Shown here: positions 35,325-58,176 of the stretch, piece after piece
Position numbering within the stretch: the first letter of the stretch is position 1
How the letters are laid out: each line of letters starts with the position of its first letter
NCBI GenBank assembly: GCA_964636685.1
Contig: CAZWUK010000001.1
Coordinates: forward strand, 36,053 to 100,052
Origin: an uncultured Oscillospiraceae bacterium
Lineage (GTDB): Bacteria; Bacillota; Clostridia; Christensenellales; CAG-138
DNA length: 64,000 nt
Reading direction: 5' to 3'
Program-made: the position numbers and the translations under genes
Notes under the pieces: generated by a model
The model's input: the letters and a program-made list of their open reading frames with translations, nothing else
Told to the model about the DNA's origin: nothing
Databases searched by the model: none

Positions 35325-36020
35325 TTAATTGTTCGACACGCCGAACAGGGAACATAGCTCGCTGATATCCTCTGCCAGCACATCCGGATGACATGCCAGG
35401 AGGCTTTCCACCGACCAGTTGCCGGAACCCACCGCCACAACAAAGACTTTGGCGGCGACGCCCGCGTCGATATCAAACGGGGATTCGCCGATATAGACGC
35501 ATTCCTCGGCGGGCTTTCCAACAAGCCTTGCCGCGTTGAGGATCGGCTCGGGATCGGGTTTGAAGCAGGTCACGTCGTCTCGGGAGATCAGGTACTTGAT
35601 CGAATCCGACAAATGCAGGTTGTCCAGAATAAACTGGGCGTTCTGCCGCCGTTCCGAGGTAATCAGGCACACGGGGTAGCCCGCGCGATAGATCGCCTCC
35701 ACCGTTTCCCGGGCGTTTTTAATACAGGTCGCGCCCTTTGCCATGAAGATTGGGTACTGCCGTTTATATTCCGCGATAAACTCCGCGATCCGCTCCGTCT
35801 CGCTCTGATCCACGTTTCCAAGCTGCATCAGCATCACTTCGACGGGAAGCCCGAACATGTCGAGAATCTCCTGCTTGTCCGGCACCCGCGCGCCAACATG
35901 GGAAAAGCAGCAATACAGCGCTTCACAGATGGCGTTCTGGGAATGGATCAGCGTTCCGTCAAGATCGGTCAAGAGGGCGGTGTAGGCGCCGCTTTTCGGC
36001 GCGCGTGCGACAACCTTCAT
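35325..36020 (-). CDS. HAD-superfamily hydrolase (phosphatase, PGP-like subfamily IA)
   Basis: LLTDLDGTLIHS (DxDGT) motif I, ITSERR motif II, YIGESPFDIDAG motif IV. The ATG at 36020 forms an ATGA overlap with the upstream stop; the track start is over-extended. Confidence 0.8.
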   Translation of the reverse strand: MKVVARAPKSGAYTALLTDLDGTLIHSQNAICEALYCCFSHVGARVPDKQEILDMFGLPVEVMLMQLGNVDQSETERIAEFIAEYKRQYPIFMAKGATCIKNARETVEAIYRAGYPVCLITSERRQNAQFILDNLHLSDSIKYLISRDDVTCFKPDPEPILNAARLVGKPAEECVYIGESPFDIDAGVAAKVFVVAVGSGNWSVESLLACHPDVLAEDISELCSLFGVSNN

Positions 36021-36802
36021 GATTGCTTGGACAGTATCGCGTGGTCGAGCGCGTGTTTGCAGGGACAATCCGCTTCCGTATCAACATTCTTGATAGCAAG
36101 GCGCAATACGGCTTTGAAATCCTCCACGCCCTTGCGCAGAAGCTCCGGGAATTCCGCCGCGTCGATCTCAACGTCGATGCAGTAGTTGTTGGGCAGGCAG
36201 ATGTGCGCGTAGCACATGGCAAGCTCTCTGGCAAAGATCGCTTCCGGCAGCGTCGTCATGCCGATGAGATCAGCGCCCCAGCTGCGGAAAACGCGGTCCT
36301 CAAACTGGGTATTGAAGCGCAGCCCCTCGTCCACCACGATCTTGGCATGGTCATGTACATGACCGGGTTTGACGATGTTGGCCGCGTCGATGAGCGCTTT
36401 TCGCACCACCGGGCAGTAAGCCGGCGTCATGTCCACATGGTAAGCGTCCGTGGTATTGTCATACATCGAACGCGGATAGCGGCGGGTCATGTCAAAATAA
36501 TCGTCCGGGATCACAAGATCGCCCAGCGGAATGTCGGGATTGAGGCAGCCGACGCTGTTGGTGGCAAAAATCTTCTGCACCCCCAGCTCCTTGAACGCCA
36601 TCATGTTGGCGCGGTACGGGATGCGCGGGACGATGATCTTGTGGTTGGGCCCGTGCCGCGGCAAAAAGTAAACCGGTACGTTGTCGATGGTGCCCTTGTA
36701 CATTTCGGAAGAACGCCCGTATTCATTGTCGTGAATGAATACCTCGGGGTTCTCCAGCAGATCGTAAAATCCGCTTCCGCCAATAATTCCAATCGGTTGC
36801 AT
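36017..36802 (-). CDS. MTAP-family purine nucleoside phosphorylase, paralog 1
   Basis: 261 aa: IGIIGGSGFY, YFLPRHGPNHKI.P..IPYRANM.AFKELGV, ATNSVG, ADLIGMTT.PEA.FARE. Ends in a C-terminal DCPCKHALDHAIL. Confidence 0.85.
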   Translation of the reverse strand: MQPIGIIGGSGFYDLLENPEVFIHDNEYGRSSEMYKGTIDNVPVYFLPRHGPNHKIIVPRIPYRANMMAFKELGVQKIFATNSVGCLNPDIPLGDLVIPDDYFDMTRRYPRSMYDNTTDAYHVDMTPAYCPVVRKALIDAANIVKPGHVHDHAKIVVDEGLRFNTQFEDRVFRSWGADLIGMTTLPEAIFARELAMCYAHICLPNNYCIDVEIDAAEFPELLRKGVEDFKAVLRLAIKNVDTEADCPCKHALDHAILSKQS

Positions 36803-37918: not shown

Positions 37919-38695
37919 CTATTTGGCAAGAATCGCGTGATCCAACGCATGGCTGCATGGGCAGTCGCGTTCCTCGGGCAGATCCCGTATTGCCAGGGAA
38001 ATGATGTCGGCAAAATCACGTACGCCCTGCTTCAGATGCGTTTGGAAGACGTCCGATTGGATCGGTTTTCCGATGCAGTCCGTCGGCATGCAGATGTGGG
38101 CATAGCACAGAGCGGCTTCTCTTGCCAGCACCGCTTCGGGCATGATCGTCATGCCGACAAGATCGGCGCCCCAGCCCTGAAACATCTTCTGCTCGGCGGG
38201 CGTATTATAGGAAAGCCCTTCTACCACGACAATGACCGCCTCGTCATGCGTCGTGCCCCGATGCACCTTGTGCGACGCGCGAATCAAGGCCTGCCGGATC
38301 TCCGGGCAAAACGCGGGCGCCATATCCACATGGTAGGCCACCGGGATATCATCATAAAAGGATCTCGGAGACCGGTTCGTAAAATTGATGTAATCGTTTG
38401 GAATGACCATATCGCCTACGGCAATCTTTGGATTGATGGAACCTACGCTGTTGGTCGCGATGATCTGCTCCACGCCGAGTTCCTTAAATGCCCAAATGTT
38501 GGCGCGATAGGGGATTCTCGGGACGATCACCTTATGATTCGGTCCATGCCGCGGCAAAAAATAGACGGGCCGTCCGTCGATCTTTCCTTCGAAGATCTCC
38601 GTTGACCTGCCGTACTTGTTGTCGTGAATGAACATATGCGGTTGTTCAAGCATTTCGTACATACCGCTTCCGCCGATGATTCCGATTGGCTTCAT
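37919..38695 (-). CDS. MTAP-family purine nucleoside phosphorylase, paralog 2
   Basis: 258 aa, colinear with paralog 1 (roughly 55-60% identity by eye). Same motifs and the same C-terminal DCPCSHALDHAIL. Confidence 0.85.
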   Translation of the reverse strand: MKPIGIIGGSGMYEMLEQPHMFIHDNKYGRSTEIFEGKIDGRPVYFLPRHGPNHKVIVPRIPYRANIWAFKELGVEQIIATNSVGSINPKIAVGDMVIPNDYINFTNRSPRSFYDDIPVAYHVDMAPAFCPEIRQALIRASHKVHRGTTHDEAVIVVVEGLSYNTPAEQKMFQGWGADLVGMTIMPEAVLAREAALCYAHICMPTDCIGKPIQSDVFQTHLKQGVRDFADIISLAIRDLPEERDCPCSHALDHAILAK

Positions 38696-38710
38696 GTCAG
38701 TGCTCCTCGC

Positions 38711-38724
38711 TGTAATCGTTTACA
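38711..38724. promoter_or_regulatory. cre-like / LacI-family operator palindrome TGTAAACGATTACA overlapping the predicted transcription start of the nucleoside operon
   Basis: On the minus strand it reads TGTAAACGATTACA, which fits TGWAANCGNTNWCA at every constrained position. It lies 3 nt downstream of the -10 hexamer at 38727-38732. Confidence 0.6.
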
Positions 38725-38726
38725 AC

Positions 38727-38755
38727 ATCCTATCGCACTTTTCCCGGTTTGACAA
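38727..38755 (-). promoter_or_regulatory. Candidate promoter of the MTAP2-lacI-MTAP1-HAD-BMP-ABC operon (TTGTCA-17-TAGGAT)
   Basis: Reverse complement of 38750-38755 and 38727-38732; 17-nt spacing. Confidence 0.45.
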
Positions 38756-38970
38756 GCTGAATTTTCTTCAATTCTCACAAATTTTAATGAGATTTGACAT
38801 TTTTTTAGTCCTTTTCTTCCCCATTTCTTCTTTTTTCAAGCAGTAAACGTTTTCAGTATAAATCCGCCAAATTAAATGAAATTGATACAAAATAGACTTG
38901 TTTTTATAGAATATCCGCCGCTTTTCCGCCATTGCCGAACAGCCTTGCACCGTCTTCGCGCAAAGCGCAT

Positions 38971-38991
38971 AAAAAAAGAGGCCGAAGCCTC
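38971..38991 (-). terminator. Intrinsic terminator after the 77-aa ORF
   Basis: GAGGC-ttcg-GCCTC followed by TTTTTTT on the minus strand, 20 nt after the stop codon. Confidence 0.7.
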
Positions 38992-39010
38992 CGAAAGCCA
39001 GCGCTCTACG

Positions 39011-39244
39011 CTATCTCTTTTTTAAAACCCGCAGCAGCTTTTCTCTTGCCGCATCCGCTTCCTCGTCTGTGATTCTCTGCCCACAAACATAATCCGCAGC
39101 GTCACGCCATTCCCGTGCCGAAAAACGATCCGCAGGTATTTGTTCTATCAAACCCGCAACACGGGCTTGCTCCTCGCAGTTCCTCAGGTCTGAAAGATAG
39201 GTATATTTCATTCCGCTTTGCAGCAATTCCAGAAGTGATCTCAT
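39011..39244 (-). CDS. Hypothetical small protein (77 aa) downstream of the serine recombinase
   Basis: MRSLLELLQSGMKYTYLSDLRN... The start was re-picked at the second ATG because GAGGGGG lies 5 nt upstream of it. The first ATG (39265) directly abuts the inverted repeat and has no SD. Confidence 0.5.
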   Translation of the reverse strand: MRSLLELLQSGMKYTYLSDLRNCEEQARVAGLIEQIPADRFSAREWRDAADYVCGQRITDEEADAAREKLLRVLKKR

Positions 39245-39265
39245 TGCCGCCCCCTCATCTGGCAT

Positions 39266-39386
39266 ATAATGTAGACTTTACCAGCCACATCTCGTATAAT
39301 GCAATTGTATCGATTTATGTAGAATTGCTTGGCGTGAATTGGCGTTTTTTGAGTTGTCAAACAGTGGACGATAAAGTCTACATTAT
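39266..39386. repeat. Perfect 15-bp inverted repeat pair (39266-39280 ATAATGTAGACTTTA; 39372-39386 TAAAGTCTACATTAT) flanking a 91-bp AT-rich segment
   Basis: Direct reading of both strands; the arms are exact reverse complements. The right arm overlaps the recombinase stop codon (39383-39385) and the left arm abuts the small ORF. Confidence 0.9.
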
Positions 39387-40009
39387 TTATCACAATTCTG
39401 ATTAAAATCCGTACTGTTTTTTAATTTGCACCATCGAAGAAACGTGTCATGCGTCACAGCGAGCTGCTTTGCCGCACTGCGCGCCGAAATTTTTCCTGCG
39501 CTCCACAACGGATACAGCTCCCGAAATTGCGGCGGAATCGCCTTGGTCGGCGCGCCGAACCGCACACCGCGCAGCTTTGCCGCGGCAATGCCCTCCGCCT
39601 GTCGCTTTTTGATATTGCGACGCTCTGTTTCCGCAACATAGCTCAATATCTGCAATACAAGATCCGATATGAACATTCCGGTCAGATCTTCGTCTTTTTT
39701 GGCTCGCGTATCCAGCAGCGGCATATCCAAAACCACGATATTGGCCTTCTTTTCCTTTGTAATGATCCGCCATTGCTCCAATATCTCCGAATAATTGCGG
39801 CCATGCCGGTCGATGGCATGCACCACCACGGTGTCGTTCCGCCGAAGCCGCAGCAGCATGGCGATGTAGGCGGGACGGTCAAAATTTTTCCCGCTCATCT
39901 TATCCAGATAGATCCGATCCATCTTTTCCTCGAATCGCGCCAATGCGATTTGCTGCCGCTGTTCGTTTTGATCGCGTGAAGAAACGCGCATATATCCATA
40001 GCACGCCAT
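39383..40009 (-). CDS. Serine recombinase (resolvase/invertase family, small type with C-terminal HTH)
   Basis: MACYGYMRVSSRDQNEQRQ catalytic-Ser motif, VVVHAIDRHGRN, AETERRNIKKRQAEGI, and a C-terminal HTH (ISARSAAKQLAVTHDTFLRW). GGAGGA lies 4 nt upstream of the ATG at 40009. Confidence 0.9.
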   Translation of the reverse strand: MACYGYMRVSSRDQNEQRQQIALARFEEKMDRIYLDKMSGKNFDRPAYIAMLLRLRRNDTVVVHAIDRHGRNYSEILEQWRIITKEKKANIVVLDMPLLDTRAKKDEDLTGMFISDLVLQILSYVAETERRNIKKRQAEGIAAAKLRGVRFGAPTKAIPPQFRELYPLWSAGKISARSAAKQLAVTHDTFLRWCKLKNSTDFNQNCDK

Positions 40010-40101
40010 AAGCTCCTCCAATCGTTTTTCCCTCATTGTAAGAACAAACGGGCAGCGAGCGCCAATGGTAAATCCTGGAATTTAGATTCCAAATATTTAT
40101 C

Positions 40102-40130
40102 TTGAAATCATAACTGTTTTATATTAAAAT
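40102..40130 (+). promoter_or_regulatory. Candidate promoter of the FabT-like marR-degV operon (TTGAAA-17-TAAAAT)
   Basis: Hexamers at 40102-40107 and 40125-40130 with 17-nt spacing. The palindrome TGGAAT-ttag-ATTCCA lies just upstream at 40074-40089. Confidence 0.5.
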
Positions 40131-40160
40131 AATTTAAGCTTAAAACAACGGAGGCATTTT

Positions 40161-40616
40161 ATGACCGAACGGCAGCGCAGCGAACTGAACTTATTCTTTG
40201 TGGATACCTTTAACAACATCCTCTGTTGGGAGGAACGCGCGCTTTCTGCGGCAGGCATCAAGGATCTGTCCGTGCGGGAGGTACACACGATTGAGGCTGT
40301 GGTGAAGCTTTGGCGTGAATCTCGAAACACCATGTCGCATATCGCCACAGCTCTCGGCATTTCCGTAGGCGCGCTGACCACTGCCGTCAACACCCTCATT
40401 CGCAAGGGCTACCTCGTCCGCGCCTCGTGTCCGAACGATCGCCGGATCGTGTTGGTCGAACCAACGCAGGCGGGTATTGCCGCGGACGACAAGCACAGCC
40501 GCTACCATGCCGCCATGATCGAAGGCGTTGGAAAGACCGTATCCGGCGAAGACTTGGATACGCTCCTGCAATCTTTGGAACAACTCGCCGGTTTTTTCCG
40601 GCAATCCGCGACTTAA
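40161..40616 (+). CDS. MarR-family transcriptional regulator, FabT-like
   Basis: 151 aa, colinear with streptococcal FabT as I recall it: FNNIL..EE......KDLSV.E.HTI; LTTAVN.L.RKGY..R....DRR.V....T..G; H...H..M. Confidence 0.65.
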   Translation: MTERQRSELNLFFVDTFNNILCWEERALSAAGIKDLSVREVHTIEAVVKLWRESRNTMSHIATALGISVGALTTAVNTLIRKGYLVRASCPNDRRIVLVEPTQAGIAADDKHSRYHAAMIEGVGKTVSGEDLDTLLQSLEQLAGFFRQSAT

Positions 40617-56925: not shown

Positions 56926-57033
56926 TCCACAGGATTCTTTTTATGTTACTGCATTGCATCGGGATTGGCAACGCTAAAATCTCAAAAAACCGTTTTTTAT
57001 CCCGTTTCCGTTCCTGCGGGCGCGCAGATATCT

Positions 57034-57120: not shown

Positions 57121-58176
57121 TTATTTTTGAAGCACCGCATCCGCAATGCAGTAACGGTAGGCCGTGTCGTTCAACGACGCCATATAGGCGTTCGGCACCA
57201 GCGAAAATTCCATGGTGTCCAAGATTTCTCCGTCCCAGGTTTGCATTTCCACCGTGACAAGTACGCCGTCGCCGCCAAGGTAGGAGGTCACGACGGTCAG
57301 CGCGTCGCCGGAATCGGAATTGTCCAGCACATAGACGTCCTCCTCCGCGTCGTATCGCACGCCCCATAGCGTATCCGGAATCTCCGGCAATGTGCCGTCA
57401 AACTCCGTGAGTATCGTGCTTGCAAATTTTTTAATCAATTCAGCAGGAACGATTGTCTCCTCCTGCGTCTGCGTGACGCATTCGTCCGTGCAGCCGTAAT
57501 TGACGCCCATCAAATACATCACCTGCCAGAAAAACATCCCGTCCTCCGGCTCATAGGCGCCGTCCGTGTTCTGCATGACGCGCAGCACCGAATCCATGGC
57601 GGGGAGCATGGCCTGGATACGATCCTCCGCATTCTGCGTCCGATCCTTCAAGGCGTCCGTATCCAGCTGGAAAACATATTCGACCGTGTTTTCCCCAAAT
57701 CTGCACGTGAATAAAAACGCCCGGCGTACAGCGCCTTCCTGAAAATCAGCGTCCTTTACGCTCAAAAGCGCCGTAATGTCCTCGTTTAGCACAAAACGGA
57801 CGGTTCCCTCGACGACCGGCGTATCAATCTGCTCGGTAAACTGCTCCGGGCGTTGTTCCCCGTTTACACCGGCAATCCATCCGGTCAAGCTTGTTTCATC
57901 CGGCAGGACGCCGCTGAAATGGAATATGATCTCCGTTCCCAGCCGCACCTGCGGGATGTCGTACCCCAGCCCGTCATATTCGGAAAAAGCATCCGCCTGA
58001 CGTTCCGCAAGACTTTTTTCGTCACTCGAAAGCCGTGTGTAAGGCACAGTCATTTCACCCGCTGTAATGGTCAACGCGGGAATCTCCTGCTGCACTGTTT
58101 CTTCGGGCTTTGCGCACCCGGTCAAACAAGCGGCCAGCATCAGAAAGGCTGCCAGCCCGGACAGATACCGTTTCAT
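57121..58176 (-). CDS. Lipoprotein, unknown function
   Basis: 351 aa with signal peptide and lipobox MLAACLTGC. Confidence 0.6.
   Translation of the reverse strand: MKRYLSGLAAFLMLAACLTGCAKPEETVQQEIPALTITAGEMTVPYTRLSSDEKSLAERQADAFSEYDGLGYDIPQVRLGTEIIFHFSGVLPDETSLTGWIAGVNGEQRPEQFTEQIDTPVVEGTVRFVLNEDITALLSVKDADFQEGAVRRAFLFTCRFGENTVEYVFQLDTDALKDRTQNAEDRIQAMLPAMDSVLRVMQNTDGAYEPEDGMFFWQVMYLMGVNYGCTDECVTQTQEETIVPAELIKKFASTILTEFDGTLPEIPDTLWGVRYDAEEDVYVLDNSDSGDALTVVTSYLGGDGVLVTVEMQTWDGEILDTMEFSLVPNAYMASLNDTAYRYCIADAVLQK

Follow-up and report, generated by a model that had tools for sequence, protein, structure and literature searches.

Organization of the locus

The window analyzed here (the whole 64,000-nucleotide stretch from contig CAZWUK010000001.1 of an uncultured Oscillospiraceae bacterium) contains a gene for a small serine recombinase, a short segment of DNA bracketed by inverted repeats and, beyond it, a small open reading frame (ORF) encoding an acidic protein of 77 amino acids (aa). 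This locus is very probably a phase-variation switch, or inverton, in which a serine invertase encoded in cis flips a 105-bp promoter cassette. The component features, numbered along the window, are as follows.

39383..40009, minus strand: small serine recombinase gene, presumed invertase (208 aa; alternative upstream ATG at 40036)
39365..39392, no strand: recombinase-proximal recombination site (core repeat 39372-39386; GTCTAC hexamer 39376-39381; putative crossover dinucleotide 39378-39379)
39281..39371, no strand: invertible segment (91 bp between the core repeats; 105 bp from center to center of the sites, or 10.0 helical turns)
39260..39287, no strand: ORF-proximal recombination site (core repeat 39266-39280; GTAGAC hexamer 39271-39276; putative crossover dinucleotide 39273-39274)
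39272..39300, plus strand: split promoter (-35 TAGACT at 39272-39277 in the repeat; 17-nucleotide spacer; -10 TATAAT at 39295-39300 in the invertible segment)
39011..39244, minus strand: gated gene for the 77-aa acidic, all-helical protein (ORF, with a GAGGGGG ribosome-binding site at 39250-39256)
38970..38992, minus strand: intrinsic terminator-like hairpin and T-run from a terminator scan (hairpin 38992-38977, GGAGGCTTCGGCCTCT, then TTTTTTT)

An initial annotation of this DNA had pointed to the two repeat arms, the 91-bp AT-rich segment between them, the overlap of the right arm with the end of the recombinase gene, and the 77-aa ORF (39244-39011) near the left arm with a terminator of its own, all of which were borne out. 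The left arm, ATAATGTAGACTTTA at 39266-39280, has its exact reverse complement at 39372-39386, which gives a repeat-segment-repeat unit of 121 bp. The pairing can be extended to 23 nucleotides (nt) at 87% complementarity, with three mismatches (39266-39288 / 39364-39386). The right arm contains the recombinase stop codon (39383-39385), and the start of the 77-aa ORF lies 21 bases beyond the left arm. The switch region has a G+C content of 39%, compared with 55.7% for the window.

These two arms form the single perfect inverted repeat of at least 14 nt with a gap of 20-300 bp in the 64-kb window, and the repeat core is found at this one pair of sites only. By chance, a 15-nt perfect pair would be expected at a mean of 0.02 per window (Markov-1 simulations of the window). 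When the minimum length is lowered to 12 nt, the window holds one other perfect repeat with a gap in the same range, a 13-nt pair at 56945-56957 / 57143-57155 that is separated by 185 bp and spans an intergenic terminator. This pair is probably not meaningful, as about 1.8 twelve-mer matches are expected by chance.

Natural occurrence of both orientations

Exact-protein look-up of the 77-aa product retrieved three independent metagenome contigs, L001 (35 kb), L002 and L003, each from a different sequencing run. Over up to 6 kb of flanking DNA they agree with the window at 99.9-100% identity, and between the flanks the 121-bp unit lies in the reverse orientation at 100% identity. When these contigs are compared base by base with the window, the sequences that flank the two cores on the inside (CCAGCCAC and TCGTCCAC) prove to have changed places in all three, and therefore exchange took place inside the 15-bp core. 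In these contigs the TAGACT-17-TATAAT arrangement is aimed at the small ORF, a configuration designated ON. This is the state that the initial annotation had predicted, in which inversion rebuilds the -35/-10 geometry at the other arm and directs it toward the 77-aa ORF. Another contig of the species, L045, carries a near-identical recombinase and is arranged as in the window. Both orientations thus exist in the same organism, with L001-L003 on one side and the window and L045 on the other.

Additional contigs are informative because of where they end. L044 (together with two similar places) and L046 stop precisely where the second core copy ends, which is the point at which ON and OFF sequences diverge; such contig ends are expected if one sample holds both orientations. 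A scan of metagenome contigs for both arms separated by a gap of 70-100 nt gave 0 matches.

A 121-bp unit that has perfect terminal inverted repeats and is AT-rich relative to the genome might also be taken for a miniature inverted-repeat transposable element inserted beside the recombinase gene, or the repeat might have given rise to an assembly artefact. Explanations of this kind can be set aside almost entirely. The core is confined to one place in the 64 kb, the same position is occupied by both orientations with no flanking duplication, and in many genera with differing segment sequences the same layout accompanies the recombinase gene (see below). An artefact is further opposed by the length of the repeats (15-23 nt), which is shorter than typical assembly k-mers, and by the base-for-base agreement of three independent assemblies.

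Conservation in a sister species

A sister species carries the same locus with the same gene order (DegV, MarR, recombinase, switch, small ORF and nucleoside phosphorylase); its small ORF is 75% identical and its recombinase 88% identical to those of the window. The segment is in the window orientation in L004 and L006 of this species, whereas L005 and L007 begin exactly where the ORF-proximal repeat does. The ORF-proximal site is identical at 21/21 positions, and a block of 19 nt around the -10 element, AATTGCATTATACGAGATG, is also retained, while the remaining segment is heavily substituted. The initial annotation had named loss of the repeats from homologous loci as a finding that would speak against a switch. 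The opposite is observed, in that the sister species keeps both the repeats and the -10 region, and the same layout is kept in more distant relatives.

Recombination sites and a third site copy

The sequence common to the recombining partners is 15 nt long in the window species and 16 nt long (GTAGACTTTATCGTCC) in the sister species. Because these shared stretches overlap at GTAGACTTTA, exchange is confined to that overlap. By analogy with related sites, the crossover probably lies in the -35 hexamer, at the AG of TAGAC. Dyad symmetry is weak in both sites of the window. Clear dyads of 28-32 bp are present in the relatives L012, L016, L047 and L055, where the axis coincides with the NN of a GT-NN-AC hexamer; the dyad reads TGAACGATAAT-GTCTAA-ATTATCGTTCA in L012 and GCTGTTTC...GAAACAGC in L016. 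The 28-nt extent and the center assigned to the window sites are modeled on these dyad-symmetric relatives and should be regarded as putative.

Most alleles contain an additional 22-bp unit, ATAATGTAGACTTTATCGTCCG, that adjoins the recombinase stop codon and constitutes a third copy of the site in direct orientation (L001 2837-2858; L004 3838-3859; equivalent to about 39365/39366 in the window). The unit is present in L001-L003, L044 and L046 and in the sister-species contigs L004 and L006, with no difference between the two species, and is absent from the window and from L045. It may be an accessory site or a neutral duplication. Thus, the two-repeat layout described by the initial annotation holds for the window and L045, whereas most alleles have three site copies. 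Comparison of the ON and OFF states indicates that the second and third copies are the recombined pair. In three-site alleles 126-127 bp separate copies one and three, and 22 bp separate copies one and two; both distances are near whole helical turns. With such an allele OFF, copies one and two would make up an almost perfect tandem repeat. Loss of one unit is the simplest explanation for the two-site allele.

A promoter divided between the repeat and the invertible segment

The TAGACT and TATAAT elements and the 17 nt between them lie exactly where the initial annotation had placed them, and they point rightward, toward the 3′ end of the recombinase gene. The window therefore represents the OFF state for the small ORF. 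A promoter scan scored this arrangement at 10/12 matches. Among loci with a (T/C)AGAC(T/A) core (the GTAGAC subfamily), a -10 element is found 17 nt from the core hexamer at one arm in 11/11 cases, in the form TATAAT in seven, TATACT in two, and TAGAAT and TACACT in one each. The split -35/-10 arrangement was also considered as a feature of the whole family, an idea that was rejected, as loci with GTGTAC and GTATAC cores do not have this geometry. The promoter is aimed at the recombinase gene in most assemblies.

The recombinase and its relatives

The protein encoded at 39383-40009 matches Pfam Resolvase (PF00239, E 5.6e-27), the only domain found, with no domain of the Phage_integrase type, and it carries the motif Y-x-R-V-S-S-x-x-Q. 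The ATG at 40009 follows a GGAGGAG ribosome-binding site, and the 208-aa form that begins there is the one chosen by gene callers on other contigs. Among solved structures the closest by sequence is the Sin resolvase (2r0q, E 1.2e-24), followed by Tn3 resolvase (3.6e-15), gamma-delta resolvase (1.3e-14) and Gin (1.7e-13). The likeness to Hin and Gin proposed in the initial annotation therefore extends to the logic of the switch, whereas the enzyme itself is closer to Sin-type resolvases. Its score against the NCBIfam equivalog for Mpi (NF009949) is 38.3 bits, below the cut-off of 272.

Relatives at E<1e-40 number in the thousands, nearly all of about 200 aa and from gut-type Firmicutes. A recombinase-based scan of a collection of genomes from 185,579 species recovered none of the same species, the best recombinase being 63-64% identical, and the relatives recovered point to Clostridia. 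In many of the 35 loci that were examined for layout, which come from species-representative genomes and whose recombinases are 45-63% identical to that of the window, a GT-NN-AC inverted-repeat pair directly follows the recombinase stop codon. The relatives with this layout have recombinases 45-65% identical to that of the window and belong to Oscillospiraceae, Lachnospiraceae and Erysipelotrichaceae. The recombinase-linked layout persists among genera while the segment sequences differ, and the genes downstream of these switches mostly begin with signal peptides. A second natural flip is evident in Anaerostipes amylophilus, in which L030 (3200-3304), with a recombinase 55% identical to that of the window, and L102, L103, L104 and L106 have opposite orientations.

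Given that Sin is the closest solved relative and that the site copies in tandem, 22 bp from one another, look like accessory sub-sites, the repeats could in principle be operator or res-like sites that bind the recombinase, perhaps for autoregulation, rather than substrates for inversion. They could also be a structural element of a transcript, as a weak hairpin and T-run overlap the right arm. These alternatives are very improbable, for the segment is inverted with its inner flanks swapped in three contigs, inversion recurs in a second member of the family, and the sites are inverted rather than direct. In addition, an Rfam search of 38600-40200 returned no family match, only a single chance miRNA match below threshold.

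Helical phasing of the site spacing

For 17 loci, the center-to-center distance was taken from the best-matching site pair, with distance ignored in the choice. The resulting spacings (94, 94, 94, 95, 103, 104, 104, 104, 105, 105, 116, 136, 137, 137, 138, 154 and 156 bp) fit a period of 10.5 bp with a mean resultant length R=0.81 and a phase near zero, a value attained by 0/5000 random distance sets even when the period was optimized between 9 and 12 bp. The 154-bp outlier (L026) was traced to N-masking; in L097 the distance between these sites is 135 bp. A second set, drawn from metagenome contigs whose species overlap the first set in part, gave 94, 94, 95, 104, 104, 117, 127, 135, 136, 137, 156 and 171 bp, which repeats the pattern. 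In the family as a whole, the spacings correspond to whole turns of the helix (94, 105, 116, 127, 137 and 157 bp). Shuffled regions yielded a qualifying site pair in 0/310 cases. It would appear that both dyads have to lie on one face of the helix, which would be expected if a recombinase tetramer has to close a loop of about 100 bp. No mention of helical phasing was found in the inverton literature searched.

The gated protein and its family

The 77-aa protein has no significant match in Pfam, NCBIfam or PDB profiles, and a word-based search recovered the sister-species homologue alone. An exhaustive HMMER search returned 103 cluster representatives at E<=1e-3, all of about 70-130 aa, and their alignment displays conserved YLSDL(R/H) and EWNDA..YL motifs. 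The AlphaFold2 model of the protein consists of five helices (pLDDT 88), and Foldseek found no structural neighbor for it in the PDB or BFVD. A known helix-turn-helix regulator, an excisionase or recombination directionality factor (Xis/RDF type) and an anti-sigma factor were each considered and dropped, there being no significant domain or structure match. As judged from its sequence, the 77-aa protein belongs to an undescribed family of helical proteins of about 80 aa.

The genomic context of ten family members falls into the following groups.

Directly downstream of a serine recombinase and a GT-NN-AC repeat pair: six (window species, sister species, L047, L052-54, L055, L012)
Downstream of a tyrosine recombinase: two (L048-50, which have 23-nt inverted repeats at a distance of 238 bp; L056)
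On a 1-kb contig, too short to tell: one (L057)
On an Enterocloster bolteae plasmid, NZ_CP053230.1 33455-33730 (H2 / L058): one

The homologue on the E. bolteae plasmid overlaps the start of a gene for a giant InlB B-repeat surface protein, and a tyrosine recombinase fragment lies upstream. In L047, a large signal-peptide protein is encoded two genes downstream of the homologue, beyond a 320-aa ORF. In L048, where the homologue occupies 1315-1598, the next protein has weak, sub-threshold matches to adhesin repeats. The 77-aa gene of the window stands alone before its terminator. Overall, nearly all members sampled lie downstream of a serine or tyrosine recombinase, and DNA switches seem to carry this family repeatedly, sometimes at the head of surface-protein operons. 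In Bacteroides polysaccharide loci, small regulators follow invertible promoters; by a loose analogy, the best guess is that the 77-aa protein is a phase-variably expressed regulator or helper tied to surface-protein expression.

The recombinase, switch and small ORF together make up a compact, AT-rich cassette of two genes, set (38700-39010 and 40040-40160) between neighbors of the housekeeping type, MarR and DegV on one side and a phosphorylase on the other. Just downstream of the cassette, two paralogous PNP_UDP_1 nucleoside-phosphorylase genes (36017-36802 and 37919-38695, about 72% identical in DNA) flank a gene for a LacI-family regulator. In L052 a homologous cassette resides in an entirely different neighborhood, which suggests that the cassette moves as a unit.

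Proposed mechanism

In the mechanism envisaged here, the adjacent serine recombinase would bind two inverted sites of roughly 28 bp, centered on 39273/4 and 39378/9. Strand exchange would take place within the shared core, probably at the dinucleotide identified above, so that the intervening DNA flips. As the -35 element lies in the recombination site, it would be present at both ends, and the single -10 element would ride on the segment. In the OFF state, the promoter would fire across the segment and into the 3′ end of the recombinase gene in the antisense direction. In the ON state of L001-L003, it would be formed at the recombinase-proximal site and transcribe the 77-aa gene, ending at that gene's own terminator. 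The whole-turn spacing (10 turns here, 9-15 in relatives) would permit synapsis by a tetramer over a very tight loop, probably aided by a DNA-bending protein. Conceivably, antisense transcription in the OFF state lowers recombinase levels and thereby stabilizes that state, an idea that is consistent with OFF being commoner among the assemblies. The adjacent recombinase is the putative agent of the flipping, and promoter activity and the antisense effect on the recombinase are predictions.

Ongoing or past inversion

The only serious rival to a working switch is historical rather than ongoing inversion, particularly in this strain: the segment would have inverted in the past, with no appreciable flipping now, and the ON three-site and OFF two-site forms would be circulating alleles. 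One further feature of the window bears on this possibility.

39803..39805, minus strand: recombinase codon 69 (His in the window, Leu in every other allele; DRLGR to DRHGR)

The DRLGR motif of resolvases contains two catalytic arginines. The L69H substitution is the sole amino-acid difference between the window recombinase and the L001 allele, and because this residue is unique to the window, exact look-up of both the 217-aa and the 208-aa forms gave no match.

Several observations weigh against a switch that is active as described. The complete ON contigs of the species all have three sites, against two in each of the OFF sequences, namely the window and L045, such that orientation and site number co-vary across the five informative sequences of the species; ON and OFF could thus partly reflect two alleles rather than ongoing switching. 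Among 119 homologues, the catalytic motif is DRLGR in 116 and DRMGR in two, and DRHGR occurs in the window alone. Together with the absence of the conserved third copy, this substitution may mean that the switch of this strain is sluggish, impaired or locked OFF. The evidence for the two orientations is at the level of assemblies and comes from separate contigs rather than from one clone, and another recombinase elsewhere in the genome could be the true invertase. With regard to the promoter, which the invertible DNA appears from its sequence to carry and which inversion would re-aim, the -35 element fits the consensus at 4/6 positions. The region is not enriched in promoter-like matches (3 found, 2.5 expected), and so the case for a promoter rests on conservation and not on the scan.

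Nonetheless, a relic or locked switch is unlikely, if by some distance the most credible of the alternatives. The 99.9-100% identity of the flanks of ON and OFF sequences implies a very recent rearrangement. The three-site contigs end where ON and OFF diverge and not where two- and three-site alleles diverge. In the sister species a three-site allele is found OFF, which means that orientation is not fixed by the number of sites. Finally, the sites and the -10 block are visibly constrained. A phase-variation switch run by the adjacent serine invertase thus remains the preferred explanation of the locus.

Implications

Taken together, the features of this locus and its relatives could mark a widespread class of miniature switches in gut Clostridia that depend on serine recombinases and are as yet undescribed, a joint reading that is offered tentatively and for which the odds fall somewhat short of even. 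It links four features. The crossover may lie inside the -35 hexamer of the promoter. Whole-turn spacing (9-15 turns) may be required, with a tight, phase-sensitive loop and no enhancer of the Fis type. The OFF promoter, running antisense into the recombinase gene, may bias the switch. Lastly, such switches and unrelated tyrosine-recombinase switches may repeatedly gate the YLSDLR / EWNDA family, whose members of about 80 aa may often head giant-adhesin operons and could regulate or help surface architecture in trans.

Invertible promoters are a main route by which gut bacteria diversify their surfaces and survive pressure from phage, the immune system and antibiotics. They have been well studied in Bacteroides and Clostridioides difficile and hardly at all in commensal Clostridia, for which the present locus provides a compact model. 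It comprises a single recombinase, a single 105-bp switch and a single small gene, and public data already display it in both states. The whole-turn rule bears on how serine recombinases achieve synapsis over very short loops, and it could guide the design of very small genetic switches. The gated family seems to be a preferred cargo of two unrelated recombinase classes, which makes it a candidate for a new phase-variable regulator. In addition, where read data are lacking, genomes could be searched for such switches by the combination of a GT-NN-AC core, a -10 element 17 nt away and phased spacing.

Comparison with known systems

Similarities to the Hin system of Salmonella (the H-segment with hixL and hixR) and to Gin, Cin and Pin are found in the small serine recombinase with an N-terminal catalytic domain, in the two inverted sites, and in an inversion that re-aims a promoter to turn a neighboring gene ON or OFF. 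Hin-type crossover sites are dyads of about 26 bp with a 2-bp overlap at the center; the sites of relatives are clear dyads of 28-32 bp, those of the window weak ones, with a putative cleavage position. Hin-type segments are of kilobase scale, whereas the sites in the window are 105 bp apart and those of its relatives 94-171 bp apart, an order of magnitude shorter, with the gated gene outside the segment. By sequence, the window enzyme is nearer to Sin and the Tn3 resolvases than to Gin. To our knowledge, no Fis occurs in Firmicutes of the Clostridia type. Hin-type enzymes require a remote Fis-bound enhancer (PMC3798978), a mechanism that is unlikely to apply to the window locus.

The polysaccharide promoters of Bacteroides fragilis offer another parallel, in that Mpi, also a serine recombinase of a gut commensal, flips short promoter segments flanked by repeats. 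Mpi acts globally on many dispersed promoters, whereas each recombinase gene described here adjoins one switch, the core of which occurs at a single pair within the 64 kb of the window, and the core (GT-NN-AC) is different.

Sin and beta, resolvases of Gram-positive plasmids, include the closest solved structure by sequence. These recombinases form synapses that depend on accessory sites and HU, and the extra tandem copy 22 bp from the crossover site, along with the sharp bending expected in the window locus, may be reminiscent of such an arrangement. In the window, however, the active pair is inverted and the product is an inverted promoter, in contrast to the direct-repeat res sites at which plasmid or transposon cointegrates are resolved.

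The locus also has the properties by which invertons are recognized in gut surveys of the PhaseFinder type, namely a short, repeat-flanked segment found in both orientations, a promoter and an adjacent invertase gene. Of catalogued invertons, over 75% measure less than 300 bases (PMC11602134). Gut surveys (PMC11892184, PMC11602134) describe many short invertons and associate the Clostridia groups chiefly with tyrosine recombinases, and one of them leaves serine enzymes undiscussed, whereas the window enzyme is a serine recombinase. No description of the repeat core, the split -35, the helical phasing or the small-protein cargo was found in the inverton literature searched.

Within the Clostridia class, the RecV switches of C. 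difficile (flgB, cwpV and cmrRST) are likewise short invertible regulatory segments that give rise to phenotypic heterogeneity. RecV is a tyrosine recombinase that acts in trans on several switches, whereas the window enzyme has a Resolvase domain and is encoded beside a single switch. The switch is of a type that is known in kind, with some architectural features that are new.

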